Under the pieces are notes generated by a model, which ran no database searches, was not told where the DNA came from, and saw only the letters and a list, made by a program, of their open reading frames with translations. Below are positions 5,901-64,000 of a stretch of DNA of 64,000 nucleotides, piece by piece. The stretch's first letter is position 1. Each line of letters starts with the position of its first letter. The position numbers and the translations under genes are program-made. The DNA comes from Burkholderiales bacterium (GTDB taxonomy: Bacteria > Pseudomonadota > Gammaproteobacteria > Burkholderiales > Burkholderiaceae_C), in the NCBI GenBank assembly GCA_947464185.1, contig CANHVY010000018.1, positions 3,220 to 67,219 of the forward strand. Reading direction: 5' to 3'.

Positions 5901-7026
5901 CGCGCTCCCAGGGCTCGTCGGTGCCGGGCAGGCGCAGGTGGCTGGTGGAAAAGCCCGTGAGCCCTGCCTTGGGCCGCGCACCGCGACCGGTGGCGCCCTC
6001 GTCGCGGATCTCGCCGCCCGCGCCCGTGGCCGCCCCCGGGAAGGGCGAGATGGCGGTGGGGTGGTTGTGGGTCTCCACCTTCATCAACACGTGGGCGGTG
6101 ACATCCCGGCCCTCGTAGGGCGCGGCAGACTCCCCGGCCTGCGGCAGCCACAGCCGCGCCGGCCCGCCGGCCATCACGGCGGCGTTGTCGCTGTAGGCCA
6201 CGACCGACCCCTGAGGCGAGACCGCCTCGGTGTTCCTGATCATCCCGAACATGGAGTGAGGCTGCTCGACGCCGTCGATGGTGAAGCGGGCGTTGAAGAT
6301 CTTGTGTCGGCAGTGCTCGGAGTTGGCCTGGGCGAACATCATCAACTCCACATCCGTGGGGTTGCGCTGCAGCCGGGTGAAGGCCTCGACCAGGTAGTCG
6401 ATCTCGTCGTCCGACAGGGCCAGGCCAAAGTCACTGTTGGCCTGCACCAGCGCCTCGCGGCCCTGCCCCAGCACATCCACCTGCGCCATGGGCACGCCGG
6501 GGTGCTCGTCGAACAGGGCGCGGGCGGCATCGCGAGAGCGCGCCACGCTTTCCGTCATACGGTCGTGCAACAACCCCGCCAGCCGGGCCATCACATCTTC
6601 ATCCAGTGGCGCCGGGCCACCCAGCAGGCCCTTGAACATCCCTGTGGCGCGCTGCAGCCGGAACTCGGTGACGCGTTCCACGCGCTGCACAGGCAACGCG
6701 CAGTTCCGCGCGATGTCGGTGGCCTTGCTGGACCAGGGCGACACGGTGCCCAGGCGTGGCATCACCACCAGCAGCAGGTCTGAGGCGGCCGACAAAAGCG
6801 CAGCCGCTGGCGCCGCGGGCCCGCCCTGGTCCAGCAAGGCCGCCAGGCGCTGCCTCAGCCCTTCGTCTGGCGCCTGATCGGTGGCCACCCAATGCACATG
6901 GCGCGCGCTGAGCGCCGAGATGGAGGGCTCCACCTCCTGCAGTCGCGCCAGCAAGGCCACAGCACGGAAGTCGGACAAGGCCGCCCCCCCTTCGAAGGAA
7001 CTCAGATGGAGGAACAGTGAAGGCAT
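2923..7026 (-). CDS. purL: Phosphoribosylformylglycinamidine synthase (large single-chain PurL)
   Basis: FGAM synthetase motif [24 protein letters not shown] and C-terminal glutamine amidotransferase motif GVCNGCQM. The start was trimmed to ATG at 7026 (MPSLFLHL...) because the upstream part of the 1404-aa ORF is Arg/Pro-rich junk. Confidence 0.95.
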
Positions 7027-10667: not shown

Positions 10668-11765
10668 ATGGCTCTGCACCGCATCACCATCGACGAGGCG
10701 CTGAAAGGACCGCAGGGGCTGGGGCGGTTTGGTGCCGTGATCGATGCACGAAGCCCGTCCGAATGGCAACTGGACCACCTGCCCGGCGCAGTGAACTGGC
10801 CCTCGCTGGACGATGAAGAGCGCCGCCTCGTGGGCACGCAGTACAAGCAGGTATCGGCCTTCGAGGCCCGCAAGCACGGCGCCGTACTGGTCGCGCGCAA
10901 CATCGCGCGCCACCTGGAGCAGCACGCCATGGGCCTGCCGCGCAGCTGGAAGCCCCTGGTGTACTGCTGGCGTGGAGGTCAACGCTCCGGCGCACTGGCC
11001 CTGGTGCTCAGCCAGGTCGGCTTCGAGGTGCAGGTGCTGGAGGGTGGCTACCGGGAGTTTCGCCGCCGCGTGGTGGGCGCACTGGAGACGGCCGGAACCG
11101 ACCTCGAACTGCGCCTGGTCTGCGGCCAGACAGGCACCGGCAAGAGCCGGCTGCTGCAGGCCCTGGCCGCGCAAGGCGCGCAGGTGCTGGACCTGGAGGC
11201 GCTGGCCGAACACCGGGGATCGGTGCTGGGTGCCCATCCTGATGCGCCGCAGCCCTCGCAGAAGCAGTTCGAGACCCGCTTGTGGCAGGCCTTGCAAGGC
11301 TTCGACCGGCAGCGGCCGGTGTTCGTGGAGAGCGAGAGCCGCCTGATCGGCCGCCTGCGCGTACCCGAGGCTCTGCTGCAGCACATGCGCGCCGCTCCGT
11401 GCCTGCGGGTGGACATGCCCATGGCCGCACGCGTGCAGCTGCTGATGCAGGATTACGCGCACTTCGTTCGAGACCCTGCCCTGCTCAGCGCGCGGCTGGA
11501 CAACCTGCGGGAGGTGCGCGGCCATGAACTGGTCGGCCAGTGGCAGCAAGCCCTGCAGCAGGGACGTCTGGAGAACACCGTGACCAGCCTTCTGTCCGAG
11601 CACTACGACCCGATCTACCTGAAGTCCATGGGCCGCAACTTCGCCCGGTTCGATGCCGCGCCAAGCCTGATGGTCCGCAGCGGTGAGGCCGCAGACCTGG
11701 CCAGCGCTGCCGTGCAGGCAATGGACCTGTTCCAGATCAAGCCGCTGGCTGCACCGTCCCTCTAA
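10668..11765 (+). CDS. selU: tRNA 2-selenouridine synthase (rhodanese + P-loop)
   Basis: Rhodanese active-site loop YCWRGGQRSG followed by the P-loop CGQTGTGKS. About 365 aa, typical of SelU/MnmH. Confidence 0.85.
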   Translation: MALHRITIDEALKGPQGLGRFGAVIDARSPSEWQLDHLPGAVNWPSLDDEERRLVGTQYKQVSAFEARKHGAVLVARNIARHLEQHAMGLPRSWKPLVYCWRGGQRSGALALVLSQVGFEVQVLEGGYREFRRRVVGALETAGTDLELRLVCGQTGTGKSRLLQALAAQGAQVLDLEALAEHRGSVLGAHPDAPQPSQKQFETRLWQALQGFDRQRPVFVESESRLIGRLRVPEALLQHMRAAPCLRVDMPMAARVQLLMQDYAHFVRDPALLSARLDNLREVRGHELVGQWQQALQQGRLENTVTSLLSEHYDPIYLKSMGRNFARFDAAPSLMVRSGEAADLASAAVQAMDLFQIKPLAAPSL

Positions 11766-52227: not shown

Positions 52228-55200
52228 TCAGATGAGACGGAGCAATTCATGCGCTTGTCGGAGGCCGCGGGTCGCGCGCGTCCACCACTGGGAGAAGCTG
52301 CTGCAGGGGCGCTCCACGGGTGGGAACAGGCCGGGTGATGGCTCGCACTGCGCCACGGCAGGCAGCCAGGCTTGCAGATGCGGGTCGCTCACGCTGCGCA
52401 CCGAGGCCGCGCCGTGCAGAGCGCGTTGGAGCTCCGCCGTGCTCGCCCACCAGCAATTTGAAGTCACACCGGCCATGGCCGCATGCACCCAGCGCCAGCG
52501 CGCTTCAGGCCACGGCCAAGTCTGGTGATGCTCGCGCAGGAAAACGCCGATGACGAAGGTGCCCTCAGGCAAGTCCAGCGGGGGCGGCCGCAGCGCCCAG
52601 GGGTGCACCAGCCACACATGGCGGCCTTGCAAGGACTTCACATCGCCGGCGGCCGGCCTCGTCAAGCCCAGGTCTGCAGGTGGGCTGTGCAGGAGCGGCG
52701 GCTCGGAGATGCCGCCTGGCGTCAACGCGAAGGTACGCGGCGGCGGCCCGGATCGCCCGGGGTGCTCACCCCGGGCCAGCCGATCCAGCGCCTCGTAGCT
52801 CTGGTCCACCACCGTGCTCGGGCTGTGCCAGTGCGGCGGGGCGTACCGCGCCACGTTCTCGGCGTTGAACAGGTAAGGCTTGTGGCTGCCCGTGCCGGCC
52901 ACCCACTGCCAGCTCAGGTGGTTGCTGGCCAGGTCGCCGTCCAGCAGGTGCGCCACCATCCAGTCCGCCCCGGCGCGCCAGTGCACCTGGCGCAGGTGCA
53001 CCACGTAGCTGGCCAGCCACATGCGGGCGTGGTTGTGCAGCGTGCCCGTGGTGTAGAGCGTGCGCACGGCCTCGTCCACCACCGGCACGCCTGTGCGCGC
53101 CTGGCGGATGTCGGCCGGCAGCTCCCTGGCGTAGGCGCCGTCAGGGCGCGGGCCGGGATGGACAGAAGTCAGGATGCCGTCACCCAGGTGGCCCCAGGCA
53201 TGGCGGAAGAACTCGCGCCAGCCCAGTTCGAACACCAGCTTGTGCTGCACCTCCAGCGGCCCGCGCTCCAGCACGCCGGCCAGCACCTCGGGCAGCGTCA
53301 CCAGGCCGTGGGTGATGTAGGGCGACAGGCCCGTCACCGCCCCTTCCAGGTGGTTGCGCGTGCGGGCATAGGCCGTGGGCCGCACCTGTCGCACGCGCTC
53401 CAGCGCAGCGCTGCGGGTGGGCGGCAAGGCGTCCGCCCAGGTTGAGGCAGGCGCCACAGGTGCAGGGTTGAGCCGCGCAGCCAGTTTGGCAAAGAAGTCC
53501 AGGCTGGCGGGGTTGAGCATGGCGTCCGCGCTGGCCACCTGGTGACGGGGCTGGCCCAGCAGCAGCTTGCGCACCGGCACCTCCATCTTCTTGCCCGTCA
53601 GCGTGCGGGGAATCTCCGCCACCTGCATCACCTCGTCGGGCACATGCCGGGCCGAGGCCTTGGTGCGGATCTCGTTCGCGATGCGGGCCTTCAGCGCCTC
53701 GTCCAGCACGCAGCCGGGCTGCAGCACCACGAACAGCGGCAGGAAGGAAGGCCGGCCCAGGTACTCCAGGTCGACCACCAGGCTGTCCCGCACCTCGGGC
53801 AGTTCCTCCACCACACGGTAGATCTCGGCCGTGCCCATGCGGATGCCGAAGCGGTTGATGGTGCTGTCGGAGCGGCCGTAGATCACCGAGGTGCCGCGCG
53901 GGGTGAAGCGGATCCAGTCGCCATGGCGCCACACCCCGGGAAAGGTCTCGAAGTAGCTCTCCAGGTAGCGGCGTTGGCCAGGGTCGTTCCAGAAGTACAG
54001 CGGCATGGACGGCATGGGCTGCGTGATCACCAGCTCGCCCACCTCGTCGGTCACGGGCTGGCCCGCCTCGTTGTACGCACACGCGGCCACGCCCAGCTCG
54101 GCGTGCTGGATCTCGCCCGCCGTCACCGGCAAGCCGGGCGCGCAGGCCACGAAGCCCGAGGCGATGTCCGTGCCGCCGCTGATGGAGGCCAGCCAGACAT
54201 CAGGCTTCACGTCCGCGTACACCCATCGATAGGCCTCGATGGGCAAGGGCGAGCCGGTGGAGTTGAGGGCGCGCAGCGCCGTCAAGGCAGCGAAGTCCCG
54301 CGGCCGCAGCCCGTCCTTCATGCAGTTGACCAGGAAGGCCGCTCCGCACCCCAGCAAGGTCACGCCCTGCTCGTCGATGAAGCGCCACAGCGCCTGGCTG
54401 TCGGGCCAGGCCGGGTTGCCGTCGTACAGCACGATGGACGCCCCCGTCAGCAGCCCGCCCACCTGCAGGTTCCACACGATCCAGCCCGTGCCGCCCAGGA
54501 ACAACATCCGGTCGCCCGCGCGCAGATCGTGCTGCAGGGCCAGGGTCTTCAGGTGCGTGAGCACGATGCCGCCATGCCCGTGCACCATGGCCTTGGGCAG
54601 GCCCGTGGTGCCCGAGGAGTAGACGATCCACAGCGGATGGTCGAAGGGCAGGCGCTCGAAGCGCAGCTCGGCCGGCTGCGCCACCGCCTCGGCCCAGCTC
54701 ACGCAGTCACGCCAGGCGGCCGGCGGCTGCGCGGCCGCGGGCCCGGGCACGTGCACCACGGTGCGGATGCTCGGCAGCTCACGCAGCAGTTCGGCCACCA
54801 CGTCCGCTCGGTGGTGGATCTTGCCGTTGTGGTGCACGCTGTCGGTGGCCAGCAGCAGCTTGGGCTCGATCTGGCGCAGACGGTCCAGCACCACCGTGGC
54901 GCCCATGTCGGGCCCACAGCTCGACCAGACGGCGCCAATGCTGGCACAGGCCAGGAAGGCCACCACCGTCTCCGCGCGGTTGGGCAGGTAGGCGGCCACC
55001 CGGTCGCCCGCCCCCACGCCCAGCGCACGCAGGCGTTCGGCCAAGGCGCCTGTGTCGCGCTGCAAGTCCGCCCAGGACACCTGCTGCACGGGCGCATCCT
55101 CCCGGCGGGTGATGAGGGCCGGGCGCGCGTCGGTGGCGTTACGGAACACATGCTCCGCGTAGTTCAGCCTGGCGTTCGGGAACCACGACGCACCAGGCAT

Positions 55201-55542
55201 CTGGCGCGACCCCAGCACCGGCTGGCAAGAGCCATCGGCCAGTACCTGGAAGTGGTCCCAGATGGACTGCCAGAAGGGCTCGATGTGATCGACCGACCAG
55301 CGCCACAGGTCTCGGTAGTCGGCAAACGCCAGCCCGCGTTCAGCCTGCAGCCAGCGTTCGTAGGCCGCCAGGGCCGACGCGGCCACCTGCTCTGGCGCCG
55401 GTTGCCACAGCAGCGTGCCCTCGACGGGCGCAGGGGAAGTGGGAGGGTTCAAGACAGGGCCTGAAGAGAAACGGCCGCGCAGAATACGGCACCGCCAGCC
55501 CCGCCGCAGATCCCGGGCCGGGCACCCCCGCGGCGCAGTCAA
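52228..55542 (-). CDS. Acetoacetyl-CoA synthetase fused in frame to a photolyase/cryptochrome-like FAD-binding module
   Basis: Residues ~30-690 match acetoacetate-CoA ligase (YSSGTTGLPKAMVH, YGRSDSTINRFGIRMGTAEIY, ...NPASLDFF). Residues ~705-925 carry photolyase FAD-domain blocks (TGLSPYITHG, LHNHARMWLASY, DGDLASNHLSWQWVAGTG). No stop codon separates them. The first ~30 aa are Arg-rich, so a TTG start at 55452 is a plausible alternative. Confidence 0.75.
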   Translation of the reverse strand: MTAPRGCPARDLRRGWRCRILRGRFSSGPVLNPPTSPAPVEGTLLWQPAPEQVAASALAAYERWLQAERGLAFADYRDLWRWSVDHIEPFWQSIWDHFQVLADGSCQPVLGSRQMPGASWFPNARLNYAEHVFRNATDARPALITRREDAPVQQVSWADLQRDTGALAERLRALGVGAGDRVAAYLPNRAETVVAFLACASIGAVWSSCGPDMGATVVLDRLRQIEPKLLLATDSVHHNGKIHHRADVVAELLRELPSIRTVVHVPGPAAAQPPAAWRDCVSWAEAVAQPAELRFERLPFDHPLWIVYSSGTTGLPKAMVHGHGGIVLTHLKTLALQHDLRAGDRMLFLGGTGWIVWNLQVGGLLTGASIVLYDGNPAWPDSQALWRFIDEQGVTLLGCGAAFLVNCMKDGLRPRDFAALTALRALNSTGSPLPIEAYRWVYADVKPDVWLASISGGTDIASGFVACAPGLPVTAGEIQHAELGVAACAYNEAGQPVTDEVGELVITQPMPSMPLYFWNDPGQRRYLESYFETFPGVWRHGDWIRFTPRGTSVIYGRSDSTINRFGIRMGTAEIYRVVEELPEVRDSLVVDLEYLGRPSFLPLFVVLQPGCVLDEALKARIANEIRTKASARHVPDEVMQVAEIPRTLTGKKMEVPVRKLLLGQPRHQVASADAMLNPASLDFFAKLAARLNPAPVAPASTWADALPPTRSAALERVRQVRPTAYARTRNHLEGAVTGLSPYITHGLVTLPEVLAGVLERGPLEVQHKLVFELGWREFFRHAWGHLGDGILTSVHPGPRPDGAYARELPADIRQARTGVPVVDEAVRTLYTTGTLHNHARMWLASYVVHLRQVHWRAGADWMVAHLLDGDLASNHLSWQWVAGTGSHKPYLFNAENVARYAPPHWHSPSTVVDQSYEALDRLARGEHPGRSGPPPRTFALTPGGISEPPLLHSPPADLGLTRPAAGDVKSLQGRHVWLVHPWALRPPPLDLPEGTFVIGVFLREHHQTWPWPEARWRWVHAAMAGVTSNCWWASTAELQRALHGAASVRSVSDPHLQAWLPAVAQCEPSPGLFPPVERPCSSFSQWWTRATRGLRQAHELLRLI

Positions 55543-55576: not shown

Positions 55577-56455
55577 ATGAAGCTCGTCAGCTACAACATC
55601 CAGTACGGCAAGGGCAAGGACGGCCGCTTCGACCTGGGCCGCATCGCCGCTGCGCTGCAAGGCGCCGATGTGATCGCGCTGCAGGAGGTGGAGCGCCACT
55701 GGCCGCGCTCGGGCGACCAGGACCAACCGGCCGAACTCGCCCGCCTGCTGGGCGGGGCGTACCACGGGGTCTATGGCCCCGGTTTCGATGTCGATGCCGG
55801 CGGCAGCACCCCCGGCGCACGGCGGCGCCAGTTCGGCAACATGGTGCTGTCGCGCTGGCCCATCCTGTCGTCGCGCCACCACCTGCTGCCCAAGATGGGC
55901 CTCACGCGGCAGTTCAGCCTGCAACGCTCGGTGATCGAGACCGTCATCGCACCGCCCGGCACCGCCCCGCTGCGCGTGCACTCCCTGCACCTCAGCCACG
56001 TGGGCGATGGCGACCGGGCCGCCCAGGTGGAGCGCCTGCTGCAGCTGCACCGTGAAGCGCCCCTGGAGGGCGGCGCCTGGTGTGGCACCCATGCCGACGC
56101 CGACTGGACGCTGGGCCTGCCGCCCCCGCCCATGCCCGCTGAAGCCGTCTACCTGGGCGACTTCAACCTGGCGCCGGACTCGCCGCTGTACACCCGGCTG
56201 GTAGGCCCCTGGTCGCCCGACTATGGCCGCATGAGCCACCACGGCGGCCTGGTGGACGCCTGGGTGGCCGCCGGCGGCACCGAGCACGACCCCGCCGCCT
56301 GGACTTGCGACAGCTGCGAACCCCCGCAGCGCCGCCGGCGCATCGACCACTGCCTGCTCAGCACCGAGATGGCGCACCGCGTGCGCCGCTGCTGGATAGA
56401 CCATGCCGCCACGGGCTCGGACCACCAGCCCTTGTGGGTGGAGTTGGAGGGCTGA
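55577..56455 (+). CDS. Endonuclease/exonuclease/phosphatase (EEP) family protein
   Basis: EEP blocks KLVSYNIQYG, IALQEV, LGDFNL and GSDHQPLWVEL. The start was trimmed to ATG at 55577. Confidence 0.8.
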   Translation: MKLVSYNIQYGKGKDGRFDLGRIAAALQGADVIALQEVERHWPRSGDQDQPAELARLLGGAYHGVYGPGFDVDAGGSTPGARRRQFGNMVLSRWPILSSRHHLLPKMGLTRQFSLQRSVIETVIAPPGTAPLRVHSLHLSHVGDGDRAAQVERLLQLHREAPLEGGAWCGTHADADWTLGLPPPPMPAEAVYLGDFNLAPDSPLYTRLVGPWSPDYGRMSHHGGLVDAWVAAGGTEHDPAAWTCDSCEPPQRRRRIDHCLLSTEMAHRVRRCWIDHAATGSDHQPLWVELEG

Positions 56456-56746
56456 GGGGCTTGGTGGGGGCCTGGCGTCGTGGCCCGGTGCACGGAAGAA
56501 GTCTTCCAACGTGCTCCGCATGCTGGCTCACCCCATGAGCCACATGGCCATCAGACTCGCATCCATGCATCAATCATCAAGCCCCCAGCAAAGTGGTATC
56601 CCCTGGCCTGCAAACCGAATCTCGACAGCCCATCCCGCTGCCCCGGAGTTGCCGCCGGCAGAGCCATGCCGAACAGGGCCGAAGCAAGGAAGGCCCTGTC
56701 GCCTACAGGGTTCTGACAGCTGATTGACGTGCATCAGAATCTGCCC

Positions 56747-57415
56747 ATGATCACGTTCACCGTTCGGGCGACGCTGCGCGCTCCCATCATTCGCCGGGGG
56801 TTCGTCACGTTGGACGCCCTGCTGATGGCGGTGCTCGGTCGGGGGGACGTGTCAGACCTTCTGCGGTGCGAAGACGGGTTGTATTTCGCCAGCGCCGGCA
56901 CGGTGGCGGCCGGTACCCCTCAGCAGACCGCTTCTTTCGTGGCCAGCATGCGGCCTGAACACTCGCCGCAGTGGCTGGACGTCGTCGCCCCCAACACTGC
57001 CAATGCCGACATCGGTTTTGCCGAAGGCGCCAAGGGCCGTGGCCGGCTGAACGACCTCAGGGTCGGCCTGTCCCGTCAGCGGGAAGGTGGCAACGTCATC
57101 AATGCTTATCGGGCCCAGGCCAGCACAGAAATCGAGTGGTATGCCACCGGCAGGCCTGAGGAAGTTCTGGCGGCATTGAAGGACGTGCCTTTCATCGGCA
57201 AACGCAGAACCGCAGGCTACGGCGAAGTCAGCCGCTGGGTGGTGACCCCAGGCGACTTGGACGGCGTGTCGGGTTACCTTGACGAGCCCCTCAGACCCGT
57301 TCCCGTGGACCGCTGGAAGCTGGGCGGTGACTGGATTGCCGTGGAAGCCGCCTGGAAAGCGCCTTATTGGGACGTACGCAATCGCGCGAAGTGCTTCGTG
57401 CCCTTCATCTCATGA
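56747..57415 (+). CDS. RAMP-superfamily protein, Cas5/Csf3-like candidate (first gene of the cas operon)
   Basis: N-terminal beta-strand/helix pattern MITFTVRATLRAPII..FVTLDALLMAVLG, and a glycine-rich loop FIGKRRTAGYGEV near the C-terminal third. Translationally coupled (ATGA) to the next ORF. An alternative GTG start lies at 56729. The family assignment is by eye only. Confidence 0.5.
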   Translation: MITFTVRATLRAPIIRRGFVTLDALLMAVLGRGDVSDLLRCEDGLYFASAGTVAAGTPQQTASFVASMRPEHSPQWLDVVAPNTANADIGFAEGAKGRGRLNDLRVGLSRQREGGNVINAYRAQASTEIEWYATGRPEEVLAALKDVPFIGKRRTAGYGEVSRWVVTPGDLDGVSGYLDEPLRPVPVDRWKLGGDWIAVEAAWKAPYWDVRNRAKCFVPFIS

Positions 57416-57822
57416 ACGGGGCCGAGTTCTTCATGGAGCACGCCGGCTACCGGCTGCTGCCCGAGGCGCTGGTGACCGGTGACGCCGTGGACGATGCAGG
57501 CTCGCTGTTCAATATCTCGCTGCCTTTGCACACGGGCTCGAAACTGCACTTATCCGCCTGCTGGATGGTGGTCACCCCGCAGTGGACGGCCACCAGCTTC
57601 AAGGCCTTGCCGGTGGCGGGATTTCGACTTGGAGGGGAACGGGCTGTCGCCATGCTGGAAGCCTTGAAGTCGGGTGAGCCGTGCCTGATCCTGGAGTTAC
57701 GCAGGCGCACCCTGAGGCCACGGGATCTGTTTGTGACGTATGACCCACGGGCCACCCGCATCTGTTCCGCGGGCTTGACCAGGACCCTGGACGCCACGCA
57801 GGAGAAGTGGTGGACATCCTGA
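57412..57822 (+). CDS. Small cas-operon protein of unknown family (possible minimal large/small-subunit substitute)
   Basis: 136-aa ORF, coupled on both sides by overlaps (ATGA at 57412-57415; 16-nt overlap with the next gene). No CxxC zinc-finger and no motif I can recognise. Confidence 0.4.
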   Translation: MNGAEFFMEHAGYRLLPEALVTGDAVDDAGSLFNISLPLHTGSKLHLSACWMVVTPQWTATSFKALPVAGFRLGGERAVAMLEALKSGEPCLILELRRRTLRPRDLFVTYDPRATRICSAGLTRTLDATQEKWWTS

Positions 57823-58292
57823 TCGACAAACCCGCCAAGGTGCGGGGTTACGCCTTGCACCGGCTGGTCGCACAGTACCTTCAGGGCCGACCGGCGCTTT
57901 GGGCGGACGAAGGTCAGCAAGTTCGCATTCGCCTCAAGGACGCCGCACCGCCTGAGTACGAAGTGGGCAAGGTGCTGGGCTTCACCGTCCGCGCCTGCGT
58001 CTCTTACAGCACCAAGAACCACCACCGGTACCTCCCGCTGGACGACTGGCGGGGCCGGCGGCACTGGCTGGAGTCCAAAGCGGGCGGGTGGGGCTTTGAG
58101 GTGCTGGGGGTGCATGTGCGCGGCGCCATGTCCCTCATCGAAGCCCATGACGGGCGCAGGTTCACGGTGGACGCCACCGAATTCACCGGCATCCTGCGCG
58201 TCACCGACCCCGTAGCCTTTTCAAGCTGCCTTGTCACCGGAATCGGCAAGGTGGGGCGTGCGTTCGGCCTGGGGCTTCTCATCGTTCAGTGA
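57807..58292 (+). CDS. cas6: Short Cas6-family (Cas6e/Csf5-like) crRNA endoribonuclease candidate
   Basis: The C-terminal glycine-rich loop GIGKVGRAFGLGLLIV matches the Cas6e-type G-loop (GIGrakAFGcGLL). At 161 aa it is shorter than typical Cas6e. GTG start. Confidence 0.55.
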   Translation: MVDILIDKPAKVRGYALHRLVAQYLQGRPALWADEGQQVRIRLKDAAPPEYEVGKVLGFTVRACVSYSTKNHHRYLPLDDWRGRRHWLESKAGGWGFEVLGVHVRGAMSLIEAHDGRRFTVDATEFTGILRVTDPVAFSSCLVTGIGKVGRAFGLGLLIVQ

Positions 58293-58319
58293 CCAACCAT
58301 CCACCACAGGGGGCCATCC

Positions 58320-59288
58320 ATGACACCAGCCTTCATCTTGGCCGACGTGCTCGTTCACACCGTCCAGCCGCTGACCTACACGCACCACGGCGTGAAGGAC
58401 CTGCCCTTGATGACCCGGGGCGTGGACGGCGAAGGCAAGCCTCAACGCACGGTCTACATCCCGGCCGCGCAGTTTCGTGGGCGTTTGCGGCACGAGGCGG
58501 CCCTGGCTGAATTGCGCGCACGGCCCGCCAAGGTCAAGCTGGAGGACGCCTACATGCTCGCCCTGGGCCAGGACCTGGACCCGGAAGAAGATGAGGAACC
58601 CGAGGCCATTCGCCTGGGTGACCAGATCAAGTTCCGCAAGGACAACCCCTTTCTGGACCTCTTCGGCACCTGGAAGGTGGCCAGCCGGCTGTACGTGTCC
58701 CACCTGATGCCTGAGGTGAACCTGATGCCCGACCGTGTCAGCCACATCCGGCGTGACCTCGACAGTGACGAAGACATGATGGGGCTGCTGGGAGATGACG
58801 AGCAGAACCGGATGTACGACCGGCAAACCAAGCAAGCGATGGCCTCCAAGGTGGGCACGCTCATCAAGCAGGCTGAAGCGGCGCTGAAGACAGCCCGCAA
58901 GCAACGCGACACGGCCCTGGTCGACCAGCTAGAAGCAAACCTCAAGGAGTTGAAAGACCTCAAGAAGCAACGCAAGGGCGATGACGAGTCCGACAACACC
59001 AAGCTCCTCGTGGAGTTGCAGGTGATTCCCGCAGGGATTGACCTGCTGGGCAAGATCACGGTTCAGGGCCCGCGCCCGTCAGACCTGATGTATCTCACCC
59101 AGGCGTTTGAAGCCTTGAGCCTCAAGCCCATGCTGGGCGCGCAGCGGGCACGCGGCTGTGGCGAGGTGCGGGGGCAGGCCAGCTTCCGGCTGCCGACTGG
59201 TGAACCTCTGGCCACAGTGGCGTTCGGGGGCTTCGTGCCGACACCGACACAGTGGACGGATGCAGGCCGGGCGTTCATGAACGCCTGA
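58320..59288 (+). CDS. cas7: Cas7-family backbone subunit (Csf2-like) with charged helical insertion
   Basis: RAMP/Cas7 signatures IPAAQFRGRLRH (compare IPGSSlKGalR), NPFLDLFG, and the G-rich loop GAQRARGCGEV. Residues ~145-226 are a Lys/Glu/Asp-rich predicted helical insertion. Confidence 0.6.
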   Translation: MTPAFILADVLVHTVQPLTYTHHGVKDLPLMTRGVDGEGKPQRTVYIPAAQFRGRLRHEAALAELRARPAKVKLEDAYMLALGQDLDPEEDEEPEAIRLGDQIKFRKDNPFLDLFGTWKVASRLYVSHLMPEVNLMPDRVSHIRRDLDSDEDMMGLLGDDEQNRMYDRQTKQAMASKVGTLIKQAEAALKTARKQRDTALVDQLEANLKELKDLKKQRKGDDESDNTKLLVELQVIPAGIDLLGKITVQGPRPSDLMYLTQAFEALSLKPMLGAQRARGCGEVRGQASFRLPTGEPLATVAFGGFVPTPTQWTDAGRAFMNA

Positions 59289-59294
59289 GTTCAC

Positions 59295-60878
59295 GTGGGC
59301 TACAGAAGCGCAGAGCAGCAGGCTTACGCCCGGCTCATCGAGGGGGCGCTGCGCCCGGGGGCGCCCCTGCTGGCCGGGGCTGCGCCCGGCCTGGGCAAGA
59401 CACATGGCTATTCCCTGCCCCTGGTGGCCTGCGGGCAGCGCGTGGCCGTGGCCATGAGCACCCGGCAGTTGATCGAGCAGTACCTGCAAAGCGACGCCTT
59501 GCGTGAAGCCCTGACGCTCAGGCCGGCCTCGGTGATGGCGCTGCACCCGCGTCGAGACTTTGGGTCCGATGCGGCTTATCGGGAACACCGCGCCGCCGCC
59601 CTGAAGGCGGAAGTTCTGGTGGTGACCCACGCGGCCACGCTGATCGACAGTTGGCACCCGGGCTACGCCGAACTGCGGTCCCGCCAAGTGGTGCTGTTCG
59701 ACGAAGCCGATCTCCTGGCGGACGCGGCCGATCTCAGAAGCACCTTCAGCATCGACGCCGAGGTACTGGAGGCCTGCAAGGCCCTGAACCTGCCCCACCA
59801 GGAAGCCGCCCAGGCGGTCAAGGACAAGGCTGAAGCGCCGGAAGACCGGGCTGCCGCCTCTGCCATCCTCTTCGCCCTGGCGCACCCGGCTTGGTACAAG
59901 GCCGTGGGCCGGGAGGAGGATGGGGCCCTGACCCTGAAGCACCGGATGCCGGGCAGGATGCTCAGGCGCCTGGTGGAGGAGGTGCCCCGGTGCATCTTCA
60001 CCAGCGGCACGCTCCAGGTGGGCGGCAGATTCGACCATTTCGTCAGCGCCATCGGCTTGAAGTCCATCTCCCCTGAAAGCCGGCACATCGACCCTGCCCG
60101 CCACGGTGAACTGGAGGTGGAACTGGCCGCAGCCGAACTGACCGTGTCGCAGATGGCCGCGCGCATTCGGGCGGCGGAGCGTCCCACGCTGGTGCTGACC
60201 ACCAGCCACGCCATGACACAAGCGCTGGGAGAACTTTGCCCAGGCGCCGTCTGGCGGGCGCCCGGTGAGCCCCTGGGCGACGCATTGAGACGCGTGCCCG
60301 ACGGTGGAGTCTTCATCGCCGCGGGTGCATGGTCTGGCGTGGACGATCCTCGACTGCGATGGCGTACCGTGGTGATCCCGAAGACCCCCTACCAGCGGCC
60401 CGCAGTCCTGGACTCCATCCAGGTCACCCGGTACCTGGACGCCAAAGTGGTGGCCCTGAGGCGAACCCACCAGGGGCTGCACCGCGGGCTGCGCACGCCG
60501 GAGGCGAAGTGCAGGTTGCTGCTGCTGGATCCGCGAAGCGGGCGGGTTGAACTGCGAGAGGCGATCCCTGCGCGCTTCCGGGTGGATTGGCAGGGCTTCG
60601 ACGAAGGGTCTCCCACCCTGCGTGCCCATGTGGCCGGCGAGCGCCACCTCACGCTTCGCAACGCGGCGTTGCAAGCCCTGGGGGCGCGTTGCAGTCACCC
60701 GGGCTGCGAGGTCGCGGCCCTGCACCTGCTGGACGTGCATCACCTGAAGCCCGTGGCCGAAGGCCCGCGCCGCACCACCCTGGAGGACGTCACGGTTCTG
60801 TGCAAAAACCACCACGCCGAGGCCCATCACCGGATGCGCCAGGGCGAAATTTCAGCAACGCAGGAGGAAGATTCCTGA
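59295..60878 (+). CDS. dinG: DinG-family SF2 helicase fused to a C-terminal HNH nuclease (CasDinG-HNH)
   Basis: Helicase motifs: I AGAAPGLGKTHGY, II VVLFDEADLL, SAT-like FTSGTL, V AAGAWSGVDDP, IPKTPY, and VI THQGLHRGLRTPEAKCRLLLLDPR. HNH: CSHPGC...DVHHLKPVAEG...VLCKNHHAEAHH (residues ~450-512, nt ~60642-60830). GTG start 6 nt after the cas7 stop. The array begins 27 nt after its stop. Confidence 0.8.
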   Translation: MGYRSAEQQAYARLIEGALRPGAPLLAGAAPGLGKTHGYSLPLVACGQRVAVAMSTRQLIEQYLQSDALREALTLRPASVMALHPRRDFGSDAAYREHRAAALKAEVLVVTHAATLIDSWHPGYAELRSRQVVLFDEADLLADAADLRSTFSIDAEVLEACKALNLPHQEAAQAVKDKAEAPEDRAAASAILFALAHPAWYKAVGREEDGALTLKHRMPGRMLRRLVEEVPRCIFTSGTLQVGGRFDHFVSAIGLKSISPESRHIDPARHGELEVELAAAELTVSQMAARIRAAERPTLVLTTSHAMTQALGELCPGAVWRAPGEPLGDALRRVPDGGVFIAAGAWSGVDDPRLRWRTVVIPKTPYQRPAVLDSIQVTRYLDAKVVALRRTHQGLHRGLRTPEAKCRLLLLDPRSGRVELREAIPARFRVDWQGFDEGSPTLRAHVAGERHLTLRNAALQALGARCSHPGCEVAALHLLDVHHLKPVAEGPRRTTLEDVTVLCKNHHAEAHHRMRQGEISATQEEDS

Positions 60879-60905
60879 AGGGCGACAGGAACTTGCCGGC
60901 ATTGA

Positions 60906-61337
60906 GGTCAAGCCGCCTGTTGAATGGGCGGTTACTGGAACGACCTGTGGACGCGCCACATGGGCCTGCGCGGTCAAGCCGCCTGTTGAATGGGCGGTTA
61001 CTGGAACACCGTCACGCTCACCGCCTTCCGCGCGCCGGGTCAAGCCGCCTGTTGGATGGGCGGTTACTGGAACGATGTGGTGGGCCAGGCGCGGCCGCTG
61101 CTCGGTCAAGCCGCCTGTTGGATGGGCGGTTACTGGAACGTGTAGCCCAGGTTGCCGTACAGCAGGGTCGGTCAAGCCGCCTGTTGGATCGGCGGTTACT
61201 GGAACGGGTTGGTGTCCATCAGGTAGCCAAGCCAGGATCAAGCCGCCTGTTAGATGGGCGGTTACTGGAACATGAAGCAAGTGGTGGGCGAGGCCTGGCG
61301 GGGTCAAGCCGCCCATTGGATGGGCGGTTACTGGAGG
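60906..61337 (+). CRISPR. CRISPR array: 7 repeats (36 nt) and 6 spacers (30 nt), exact 66-nt period
   Basis: Repeats start at 60906, 60972, 61038, 61104, 61170, 61236 and 61302. Consensus GGTCAAGCCGCCTGTTGGATGGGCGGTTACTGGAAC. An internal hairpin (A)GCCGCC-N9-GGCGG(TT) is followed by 8 nt, ACTGGAAC. The last repeat is degenerate at its 3' end (..GGAGG). All six spacers are unique. Confidence 0.92.
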
Positions 61338-61361
61338 AAGTTGTCGCGGGCAGCAGCTGGC

Positions 61362-61428
61362 ATCTGAAATACAGCTACTTGCGATATATCGGTTTTGCAG
61401 ATACACTGAATTTATCTGAAAAACAGAT
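61362..61428 (+). promoter_or_regulatory. Candidate hipBA promoter with two palindromic operator-like sites
   Basis: The most AT-rich stretch I noticed in the window. TTGCGA (61379-84)-N17-TACACT (61402-07) resembles a sigma70 promoter. Inverted repeats ATCTGAAATACAGCT (61362-76) and ATCTGAAAAACAGAT (61414-28) flank or overlap it. Confidence 0.35.
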
Positions 61429-61433
61429 GCCCC

Positions 61434-61754
61434 ATGACCGCCTCAACAACAGTCTTCTCCCCCACTTCTGCCGCCCAGCCCCTGCTGACAGCCACCCAGC
61501 TCGGTCAGCTGCTGCGCGCCGCGCGCAAGCAGCAGGGTCTGACGCAGGCCGAGGTGGGTGCGCGGCTGGGCTTGAGCCAGAACCGGGTCTCGCACCTGGA
61601 GGGCCACGCAGATGAGCTGAGCGTCAAGCAACTGCTGACCTGGTGCGCCGTGGTCGGTCTGGAGCTGAGTCTGGCGCATCGCCTGGCCAAGGCGCCTGAA
61701 GCCGGCGAGGTCCAGGCCCCTGGGTCTGCCGCCGCCACGCCGCCGGAGTGGTGA
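61434..61754 (+). CDS. hipB: XRE-family HTH antitoxin (HipB-like)
   Basis: HTH GLTQAEVGARLGLSQNRVSHLE. 106 aa, ending 1 nt before hipA. Confidence 0.8.
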   Translation: MTASTTVFSPTSAAQPLLTATQLGQLLRAARKQQGLTQAEVGARLGLSQNRVSHLEGHADELSVKQLLTWCAVVGLELSLAHRLAKAPEAGEVQAPGSAAATPPEW

Positions 61755-61755
61755 G

Positions 61756-63099
61756 ATGGCACGCCGCTCCAAAGCCCAGACCTTGGCCTTGTGGGCCAAC
61801 GGCACCTACGTCGGGCGCTGGACCGTCAGCGCCCGCGGCGAGATGGAGCTGCGGTACGACCCCGCATGGCGGGCGTCAGCCGTCGGGCGACCCTTGTCGC
61901 TGTCGATGCCCTTCGGCCTGGGGGACGAGCCGCTCAAGGGGCCCGCAGTCGAGCACTACTTCGACAACCTGCTGCCCGACAGCCCGGCCATCCGCAAGCG
62001 GGTGGCGGAGCGTTTCCGCACCGGGTCGGTCGAGGCCTTCGACCTGCTGGCGGCCATCGGCCGCGACTGCGTGGGTGCGCTGCAATTCCTGCCTGAGGGC
62101 GCGGCGCCCGAGGGGCTTGACCGGGTCGAGGGCGTCGAGGTGGACGAGGTCGCCATCGAGCGGCACCTGCTCGAGGTCGTGACGCCAGACCGGTTCGGCG
62201 CGGCACGTGACCGTGACGACGACTTCAGGATTTCGCTGGCTGGCGCGCAAGAAAAGGACGCCTTCCTGCGCTGGAACGGTCACTGGATGAAGCCGCGCGG
62301 CTCAACGCCCACCACGCACATCTTCAAGCTGCCATTGGGGCTTGTCGGCGGGCGGCAGGCCGACTTCAGCACCTCGGTGGACAACGAGTGGCTGTGCCTG
62401 AAGCTGCTGGCGGCGTACGGCCTGCCGGTGCCCCAGGCGGAGATTGTGTCGTTTGGTCAGCAGCGCGTGCTGGTGGTCGAGCGCTTCGACCGCATGGTGT
62501 CAGCCGATGGCCAGCGGCTGCTGCGGCTGGTGCAGGAGGACTTCTGCCAGGCGACCGGCACGTCGCCGCTGGTGAAGTACGAGGCGGAGGGCGGCCCCGG
62601 GCTGGGCGTGCTGTTCAACCTGCTTCAGCAGTCGGTCGACGCGGAGCGCGACCTGCGCACCCTGATGACCTCGCAGCTGCTGTTCTGGATGCTCCGGGCG
62701 CCGGATGGGCACGCAAAGAACTTCAGCATCCACCTGCTCCCAGGTGGACGCTACCGCATGACGCCGATCTATGACGTCATGTCGGCCTACCCCGTCATGG
62801 GCGATGCGCCCAACCAGTGGTCACCGCGGGCGCTCAAGCTGGCGATGGCCCTTGTGGGGAAGAACCGGCACTACGAGGTAGAACGCATCCAGCGGCGCCA
62901 CTTCAACAGCACCGCCAAGCGCTTCGGCTACGGCGAGACCGCAGAGCCCTTGATTCAGGAGTTCATTGCACGCACGCCGGCCGTCATCGACGAGGTGCAA
63001 AGGGCACTGCCGCCAGGGTTCTCCGACGAGGTGGCCGCCAAGGTGCTGAGCGGGCTGCAGGGCGCAGCGCGCGCCCTCGAGGCCATGTCGCCGGGCTGA
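61756..63099 (+). CDS. hipA: HipA-family serine/threonine kinase toxin
   Basis: HipA N-terminal coupling domain (LWANGTYVGRW), SLAGAQEKDAF, and the catalytic loop DGHAKNFS. 447 aa. Confidence 0.9.
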   Translation: MARRSKAQTLALWANGTYVGRWTVSARGEMELRYDPAWRASAVGRPLSLSMPFGLGDEPLKGPAVEHYFDNLLPDSPAIRKRVAERFRTGSVEAFDLLAAIGRDCVGALQFLPEGAAPEGLDRVEGVEVDEVAIERHLLEVVTPDRFGAARDRDDDFRISLAGAQEKDAFLRWNGHWMKPRGSTPTTHIFKLPLGLVGGRQADFSTSVDNEWLCLKLLAAYGLPVPQAEIVSFGQQRVLVVERFDRMVSADGQRLLRLVQEDFCQATGTSPLVKYEAEGGPGLGVLFNLLQQSVDAERDLRTLMTSQLLFWMLRAPDGHAKNFSIHLLPGGRYRMTPIYDVMSAYPVMGDAPNQWSPRALKLAMALVGKNRHYEVERIQRRHFNSTAKRFGYGETAEPLIQEFIARTPAVIDEVQRALPPGFSDEVAAKVLSGLQGAARALEAMSPG

Positions 63100-63117
63100 A
63101 GCCCCAGAAACGACAAA

Positions 63118-63154
63118 GGGCCAGCTTCTTGCGAAGCTGGCCCTCATCTTTCTT
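63118..63154 (+). terminator. Intrinsic terminator after hipA
   Basis: GGGCCAGCTTC-ttgc-GAAGCTGGCCC (11-bp stem) followed by TCATCTTTCTT. Confidence 0.75.
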
Positions 63155-63229
63155 GGCTCCCCGACCTGGGCTCGAACCAGGGACCTACGGATTAACAGTC
63201 CGGCGCTCTACCGACTGAGCTATCGAGGA
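63154..63229 (-). tRNA. tRNA-Asn (anticodon GTT), CCA encoded
   Basis: The reverse complement reads TCCTCGATAGCTCAGTCGGTAGAGCGCCGGACTGTTAATCCGTAGGTCCCTGGTTCGAGCCCAGGTCGGGGAGCCA. It has a 7-bp acceptor stem, a D-loop AGCTCAGTCGGTAGAGC, an anticodon loop CTGTTAA and a T-loop GGTTCGAGCC. Confidence 0.95.
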
Positions 63230-63323
63230 AACGAGCCCCGGATTATAGACAGGATTTGAGGCTCTCCTGGATGCTGTCGGCCCGCGCTGCCCTGGGCGCA
63301 GCCTGGCACGTCCGGCCGTGCGG

Positions 63324-64000
63324 TCAGGCCTTCTTCAGCCGTTCGTTCTGCGGGAACATCGCGCGCCGGGCCTCGTCGTCCATCTCGGTCTTGAAGCTGT
63401 GGCGCTGGCGCAGGGCCTCCACCCGGGCAGCGGCGGGGCGGGCGTTGATCTCGTCGAGCAGGCGCTTGACGTGGGGGTAGCGCTCGAAAGCCTGCTGATC
63501 ACCCACCACGAAGGGCACCAGGCGCGCCCAGCCCCAGAAGGCCATGTCGACGATGCCGTAGCTGTCGCCCACCAGCCAGGTGCGGGTGGCCAGGCGCTCG
63601 TCCAGGATCTTCCAGTGGCGGTCGGCCTCGAAGTCGTAGCGGTTCAGCGCGTAGTCCTTGGGCTCGGGCGCGGCCACGCGGAAGTGCACCGCCTGCCCGC
63701 TGTAGGGGCCAATGCCGCTGGCGATGAACATCAGCCAGCTCAGGGTCTCGGCACGTTCGGCGCAGGCCAGGTCGGTGGGCACGAAGCGGGCGTGCTTGTC
63801 GGCCAGCCACAGCAGGATGGCGTTGCTGTCGAACATCACCACGCCGTCGTCGACGATGGCAGGCACCTTGGCGTTCGGGTTCACGGCCTTGAACGCGGCG
63901 GTGTGCTGCTCGCCCTTGCGGGTGTCCACCGGGATGGCCTCGTAGGGCAGGCCCAGTTCCTCCAGCAGCAAGGCCACTTTCATGGGGTTGGGGGCGAGGT
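63324..64000 (-). CDS. Glutathione S-transferase family protein (5' end probably runs off the window)
   Basis: GST N-terminal pattern KVALLLEELGLPYE...KGEQHTAAFKAVNPNAKVPAIVD. The reading frame stays open upstream of the ATG at 63983 to the window edge (..PNPMKV..), and GSTs normally begin ~10 aa earlier. Confidence 0.8.
   Translation of the reverse strand, partial: LAPNPMKVALLLEELGLPYEAIPVDTRKGEQHTAAFKAVNPNAKVPAIVDDGVVMFDSNAILLWLADKHARFVPTDLACAERAETLSWLMFIASGIGPYSGQAVHFRVAAPEPKDYALNRYDFEADRHWKILDERLATRTWLVGDSYGIVDMAFWGWARLVPFVVGDQQAFERYPHVKRLLDEINARPAAARVEALRQRHSFKTEMDDEARRAMFPQNERLKKA

Follow-up and report, generated by a model that had tools for sequence, protein, structure and literature searches.

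A variant of type IV-A CRISPR-Cas in which the CasDinG helicase carries an HNH domain has been described in Sulfitobacter sp. JL08 (Altae-Tran 2023, PMC10910872). It mediates RNA-guided plasmid interference with a 5′ YCN PAM, uses processed crRNAs with a 30-nt spacer, and cuts double-stranded DNA directionally; its activity requires the Walker B residues as well as residues H497, D514, and H523 of the HNH domain (all PMC10910872). The variant was named IV-A2 in Makarova et al. 2025 (PMC12669027), in a usage that is not the same as the 'IV-A2' of Pinilla-Redondo 2020 (PMC7038947). The IV-A1 and IV-A3 variants, by comparison, are without a nuclease and act by transcriptional repression (PMC12669027). 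Type IV systems are mostly plasmid-borne, with conserved Cas1-Cas2e and IHF leader motifs in IV-A3 (Pinilla-Redondo 2020, PMC7038947).

The whole stretch of DNA analysed here (64,000 nt from a Burkholderiales bacterium, called the window in the following) carries a CRISPR array directly behind five cas genes on the + strand (Table 1). The gene set and gene order are identical to those of the Sulfitobacter IV-A2 system and the gene sizes are similar; the plasmid maps of that system give the order Csf3, 'M protein (Csf1/Cas8)', Cas6, Csf2, and DinG-HNH, and place a 36-nt repeat around a 30-nt guide. We therefore read the array as a chromosomal crRNA locus that serves a CRISPR-Cas system of type IV-A2 (CasDinG-HNH), with transcription, processing, and targeting as proposed below, and put the probability of this reading at roughly 0.85. 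The locus is a new betaproteobacterial member of a variant that is rare but has been described before, and the array itself is already known in kind.

Table 1. Coordinates of the cas operon and the CRISPR array in the window.
Feature	Position	Strand	Evidence or description
cas5 (csf3)	56729..57415	+	PADLOC typeIV_Cas5 1.5e-24; kept in relatives
small Csf1/Cas8-like subunit ('M protein')	57367..57822	+	position as Sulfitobacter M; conserved
cas6, Cas6e/CasE-like	57807..58292	+	PF08798 7.3e-17; PADLOC typeIV_Cas6 1.5e-21
cas7 (csf2)	58320..59288	+	PADLOC typeIV_Cas7 3.2e-32
casDinG-HNH, 527 aa	59295..60878	+	PADLOC typeIV_DinG 1.7e-45; Pfam DEAD/Helicase_C_2
dinG-repeat 1 gap, 27 nt	60879..60905	+	no free-standing leader
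CRISPR array	60906..61337	+	36-nt repeats (7), 30-nt spacers (6), 66-nt period
spacer 1	60942..60971	+	target not found
spacer 2	61008..61037	+	target not found
spacer 3	61074..61103	+	8 IMG/VR contigs, 28-29/30; 5′ flank CCC, CCT, or CCA
spacer 4	61140..61169	+	target not found
spacer 5	61206..61235	+	5 IMG/VR contigs, 28/30; 5′ flank CCG
spacer 6	61272..61301	+	target not found
terminal degenerate repeat	61302..61337	+	4 mismatches: upper stem TG>CA, 3′ end AC>GG

The identification of the cas genes rests on matches to Pfam, PADLOC, and NCBIfam, and all five genes are full length in comparison with their relatives. For the 151-aa Csf1-like ORF, profile searches against the same three collections give no match; this ORF (136 to 151 aa, with the ATG at 57412 as its likely start) is conserved at 57-65% identity in the close clade and at 27-30% in distant loci, including an alphaproteobacterial one. 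In the DinG-HNH protein, the DEAD box occupies residues 136-139 and the HNH motif is formed by H483, D498, and H507, which are invariant in four relatives and align with H497, D514, and H523 of the Sulfitobacter protein; the Walker B residues are conserved between the two as well. The window's host is a betaproteobacterium, and the proteins have diverged: the Sulfitobacter DinG-HNH has 557 aa against 527 in the window and is 42% identical to the HNH region of the latter over 64 aa (E = 4e-10), while the DinG proteins of alphaproteobacterial IV-A2 relatives are about 40% identical to that of the window.

On its 5′ side, the operon is preceded by a gene of the EEP family and by an acetoacetate-CoA ligase gene on the minus strand. 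The latter lies in a single frame of 1104 codons (52228-55542, minus strand), in which the acetoacetate-CoA ligase match covers residues 42-690 and is followed by a match to DASH-cryptochromes/photolyases over residues 705-890. On the 3′ side of the array follow a hipB-like HTH gene, hipA, and a tRNA gene on the minus strand; the hipB-like gene and hipA (61434-63099) sit directly behind the array and do not adjoin related IV-A2 loci. Three neighbors were considered as further parts of the system, namely orf106 (56403-56723), the EEP-family gene, and hipBA, and were rejected, being absent from related loci. No integrase or other mobility gene is found in the block, and a search of the DinG-HNH protein against the plasmids of PLSDB returns no match at 1e-10.

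Like the IV-A1 and IV-A3 systems (Pseudomonas oleovorans, Klebsiella plasmids), the window has a Csf2/Csf3 backbone, a CasDinG helicase, and, by our reading, Cas6-processed crRNAs, and it is likewise without adaptation genes; it differs from them in its 36-nt repeat, its 30-nt spacer, the lack of a leader, and its chromosomal location. The arrays of IV-A1 and IV-A3 have 28-29-nt repeats of the I-E or I-F type and spacers of about 32 nt. An earlier note, made from the letters of the window, had remarked that the 36/30 geometry departs from that of I-E, I-F, and IV-A arrays; this holds against I-E, I-F, and IV-A1/A3, and the geometry is the hallmark of IV-A2. With type I-E (CasE) the window shares the family of its Cas6 (PF08798) and a GC-rich hairpin followed by exactly 8 nt, which is the length of the I-E handle, while its repeat is longer by 7 nt, its stem being preceded by 5 extra nt and closing a 9-nt loop. 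A type II-C array, which has the same 36/30 geometry, was also considered and rejected, because the adjacent genes are of type IV and a search of the host genome, which is 95.9% complete, yields no Cas1.

This geometry is shared throughout the family. Protein-based searches of genome representatives find 19 DinG-HNH loci, hosted by Burkholderiales MAGs, Polaromonas, Rhodoferax, Roseateles hydrophilus, Gallionella, Azonexus, Sulfuritalea, and two Alphaproteobacteria. The 18 arrays measured (17 related ones and that of the window) all have a 36-nt repeat and spacers of 30 nt, a few of 29, 31, or 32 nt excepted, and all 18 are co-oriented with their cas genes. A scan of the same collection with the repeat pattern yields more arrays, in Congregibacter variabilis among others; the multi-copy ones all adjoin IV-A2 cas genes, and no match to Cas1 occurs within the 8 kb fetched around the newly found loci. 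A search of the genome contig collection for the exact Sulfitobacter repeat gives no match. One of the related arrays is interrupted: in locus L013 (8594-11245), repeat 2 carries an insertion of an IS66-like element (about 2.5 kb), and the array resumes at 11210.

Within the window, repeat finders recover the array as a genuine one and bear out the strict 66-nt period over seven repeats that had been claimed for it, with repeat starts at 60906, 60972, 61038, 61104, 61170, 61236, and 61302. Further copies of the repeat were sought across the host genome (a draft of 4.17 Mb in 169 contigs, 67.8% G+C), and none occurs outside the array. Five of the seven repeats carry mutations, and the last is the most degenerate. 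A degenerate repeat at the 3′ end, already pointed out in the earlier note, recurs with the same polarity in 11 related arrays, so that the 3′-terminal repeat is the most degenerate in 12 of the 18; the first repeats have 0-1 mismatches. The polymorphic positions are 2, 13, 14, 17, 18, 21, 35, and 36, all eight of them outside the core stem (positions 6-12 pairing with 22-28), in line with the claim that polymorphisms spare the CCGCC/GGCGG stem; the probability that eight variable sites avoid 14 stem positions out of 36 by chance is about 0.01 (hypergeometric). The A/G site that had been reported in the loop is real, but was misnumbered as 17, being position 18 when counted from the first G.

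The repeat consists of 5 nt, a 7-nt stem arm, a 9-nt loop, the second 7-nt stem arm, and an 8-nt tail. The proposed geometry of a hairpin followed by 8 nt is seen in the window, in the Sulfitobacter repeat, and in 82 distinct repeat variants of the family, in all of which the 3′ tail is 8 nt long and the base of the stem is fixed. The window repeat folds at -13.5 kcal/mol on the + strand and at -8.2 kcal/mol on the minus strand, where only 4 nt extend beyond the stem. With the Sulfitobacter repeat, the lengths of stem, loop, and tail are the same; one stem pair differs on both sides (G-C in the window, A-U in Sulfitobacter), two further pairs differ on one side and still pair, and 3 of the 8 handle positions differ. 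When the window repeat is folded alone with RNAfold, its stem grows to 10 bp and the loop shrinks to 3 nt; this longer stem was rejected as a feature of the family, since the upper three pairs form in only 53.7% of the cells of the alignment.

Selection for the structure of the stem, which the earlier note had argued from the window alone, agrees with covariation across the family. In an alignment of the 82 distinct variants, many of whose rows come from the same arrays, the 7-bp core helix shows standard pairs in 93.9% of cells, and sliding the 3′ partner by 1-3 columns reduces pairing to 30-60%. Compensatory changes are seen at three of the seven core pairs (C-G/U-A, A-U/G-C, and C-G/G-C). 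The covariation score and the count of double-sided changes exceed those of all 500 column shuffles, which do not correct for relatedness, and RNAalifold independently recovers the basal five pairs of the core helix. These patterns support structural selection on the stem. As the base of the stem is fixed, the tail constant at 8 nt, and the Cas6 a member of the CasE family, cleavage by Cas6 at the 3′ base of the hairpin, leaving an 8-nt handle, is the likely processing step. A comparison of the region 58000-64000 with the Rfam CRISPR-DR covariance models gives no match at E ≤ 1.

Two of the six spacers have recognisable targets. In Cascade-type complexes every sixth position of the guide is unpaired, as established for type I and assumed here, and IMG/VR was scanned with each spacer carrying N at every sixth position; mismatches were allowed only at these positions, which makes their pattern uninformative. 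Under these settings a chance match of the 25 fixed bases is expected at 1e-3 or less per spacer (a rough estimate). Spacer 3 matches within a tyrosine integrase gene and spacer 5 within a gene for a gpA-type large terminase, both on viral contigs, and the same scan gives no matches for spacers 1, 2, 4, and 6. With BLAST, the array has only chance-level matches (E ≥ 0.1) among the plasmids of PLSDB and the phages of INPHARED, and no targets of the spacers are found in the host genome. The database comparison suggested in the earlier note thus came out empty for plasmids, INPHARED phages, and host, and productive for IMG/VR; its remark that the spacers find no match in the window extends to the whole host genome. 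The closest host sequence to spacer 3 (C1:184244-184273) agrees at 26 of 30 positions, with mismatches at 4, 10, 14, and 30 and a GCC flank that is not YCN, and is probably a chance similarity in GC-rich sequence. The spacers are indeed GC-rich like their host (60-77% against 67.8% G+C), and the target contigs have 64-71%. One viral contig with a spacer 3 protospacer also contains a 66-bp tandem duplication (L044:2543-2674), which is apparently coding and not a CRISPR array.

All 13 protospacers, two of them independent, have CC at positions -3/-2, whereas in the opposite orientation the flanks would read CGT, TGA, or CAA. The CCN flanks of these natural protospacers fit the YCN PAM measured for Sulfitobacter, and also fit the + strand orientation of the array. 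This support is modest, as there are only two independent protospacers; the chance of both fitting YCN at random is estimated at about 3%. The orientation that the flanks indicate is the one to which all the other evidence points.

The array is packed tightly against the operon. The dinG-HNH frame ends with a TGA at 60876-60878, leaving the 27 nt before repeat 1 that had been counted in the earlier note, and a second in-frame TGA (60903-60905) abuts repeat 1; the dinG-HNH gene of the window therefore ends a few codons short of where its sisters end. Within the clade to which the window belongs (eight loci with DinG at least 64% identical), six loci have 9-10 nt from the dinG stop to repeat 1; the distance is 24 nt for L013 and 27 nt for the window. 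Members of the other clade (about 40% identity) carry the array within the operon, where it follows cas7 (or the M gene) with a gap of 3-51 nt and precedes dinG-HNH, whose start codon is 11 to about 130 nt past the last repeat. Permuted operons occur in L012 (3468-7554; cas6-cas7-array-cas5-M-dinG-HNH) and in L078 (array-cas5-M-dinG-HNH), so that the array does not occupy one constant place in the operon. A scan with an E. coli-type consensus, which is weak for a genome of 68% G+C, finds no sigma-70-like site around the array on the + or the minus strand. Nor is dinG separated from the array by any terminator-like site. As the array follows dinG by 9-27 nt in all eight loci of one clade and is embedded in the operon in the other, its co-transcription with the cas genes as a single transcript would be the simplest and best reading; the suggestion that the array promoter lies within the cas operon, or that the array is read through from it, is supported by the same arrangement.

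The array could instead have a promoter of its own, either within dinG-HNH, at its 3′ end, or in the gap of 27 nt, and would then not depend on simple read-through. Such promoters are common among CRISPR arrays, consensus scans are unreliable for high-GC Burkholderiales, and sister loci retain a GAATCAA motif in the last codons of dinG, even where the remainder diverges. This motif is, however, absent from the window, and no sigma-70-like site is found in the stretch concerned; in the other clade, moreover, the array follows cas7 or the M gene with gaps down to 3 nt, and no common leader is kept. We consider a separate promoter unlikely. Far less probable still is transcription from the minus strand, with the AT-rich segment 61338-61433 as leader or promoter and crRNAs that would be the reverse complement of those proposed here. 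Leaders are usually AT-rich and this segment is the only AT-rich intergenic stretch adjoining the array, but a degenerate repeat normally marks the leader-distal end, and in the window it sits at the AT-rich end. The segment lies directly 5′ of the hipB-like gene, and no promoter-like site is found on the minus strand; a role as leader is unlikely for a segment placed between this gene and the degenerate repeat. The remaining evidence points the same way: the repeat folds less well on the minus strand and has the shorter tail there, the arrays of the sister clade, flanked by cas7 and dinG-HNH, share the direction of these genes, and the protospacer flanks match YCN for the + orientation only. 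In the Sulfitobacter plasmids, the promoter is placed 5′ of the repeat strand that corresponds to the + strand of the window, and the repeat expressed in this way gave functional crRNAs. Together with the shared orientation of all 18 arrays, this agrees with the + strand direction proposed in the earlier note.

A different question is whether the array is still in use. It might be a frozen relic, perhaps expressed, that is no longer updated for want of cas1 and cas2 and possibly no longer serves in defence. Consistent with this are the absence of Cas1 from a nearly complete genome, the shortness of the array and the mutations in most of its repeats, and a block without integrase or other mobility gene. 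Against it, the cas genes are full length and the catalytic residues intact, and 28-29 of the 30 positions of spacers 3 and 5 still agree with circulating viral sequences, next to the correct PAM. Furthermore, the 150 spacers of the 18 arrays are all distinct but for one duplicate within L023, and none is shared between arrays, which argues that spacers turn over in the family; the duplicate is formed by the adjacent, identical spacers 5 and 6 of L023 (about 6851-6946). We regard the relic as doubtful and retain the crRNA locus of an IV-A2 system as the preferred reading.

How spacers might be gained is less apparent. Among 20 genomes with IV-A2 loci, searches find no Cas1 in 6, including that of the window, and in no case is Cas1 close to the locus: the nearest instance, in the genome of L021, appears to be about 20-25 kb away, apparently on the same contig, and no cas1 occurs in the stretches examined around about 30 IV-A2 loci. 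Where Cas1-linked arrays are present in IV-A2 genomes, they are mixed, some I-C-like with 37-nt repeats and others of different kinds, and their repeats show no related sequence when compared with the IV-A2 repeat. A specific adaptation partner acting in trans was rejected on these grounds (mixed arrays, unrelated repeats, and Cas1 not found in 6 of the 20 genomes). Type II-C-like arrays, with 36-nt repeats and 30-31-nt spacers, are present in 5 of the 20 genomes (L034:2863-3687, L035:2803-3693, L036:1-889, L053:1-559, and L062:2801-2902); that II-C shares the 36/30 geometry is a lead, not a finding.

As the loci are without a conventional leader and have no cas1 in the stretches examined, yet have diverse spacers that are almost all 30 nt long, an unrecognised route of spacer uptake can be proposed. 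Foreign Cas1-Cas2 with a 36/30 ruler may act in trans, for which the co-occurring II-C-like arrays offer a parallel, or a mechanism may use the repeat and a very short upstream anchor alone; type II integrases require only a few leader bases. Combined with a splitting of the operon message by Cas6, such a route is quite improbable on our estimate and is offered as a speculation. For the clade with the array inside the operon, if it were true, Cas6 cutting would separate the dinG-HNH message from the upstream cas message and might provide a built-in regulatory link.

For the window, the considerations on the IV-A2 crRNA locus can be combined into a pathway. In the lack of a free-standing leader or promoter, the array would be transcribed on the + strand as the tail of a cas5-M-cas6-cas7-dinG-HNH transcript. 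The Cas6e-like enzyme would bind the 7-bp hairpin and cut at its 3′ base, releasing 66-nt crRNAs. Each would consist of the 8-nt 5′ handle ACUGGAAC, the guide of 30 nt, and 28 nt on the 3′ side, including the hairpin. On this crRNA, Cas7, Cas5, the small Csf1-like subunit, and Cas6 are expected to assemble, and the complex would locate DNA protospacers with a 5′-YCN flank; by analogy with the Sulfitobacter system, DinG-HNH would then be recruited to unwind and cut the target.

Long repeats, short spacers, and a leader that is nearly absent are the normal architecture of IV-A2. What is added here is the covariation of the hairpin across the family, the existence of two operon layouts, protospacers in phage genes with the expected PAM, and the absence of adaptation genes nearby. 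Among the type IV variants, DNA cutting has been shown for IV-A2 only, and, as far as we have found, a single system of this variant has been studied. The present locus and some 30 relatives reveal three fixed traits of the family: the 36/30 array, the hairpin of 7 bp, and the tail of 8 nt. The loci are chromosomal and have no adaptation genes in their vicinity, and in every case the array adjoins the cas operon or lies within it, nearly without a leader. Natural IV-A2 spacers are seen to hit phage integrase and terminase genes next to the PAM measured in the laboratory. These traits aid annotation and raise the question of how spacers are gained; the known mechanism is unchanged.
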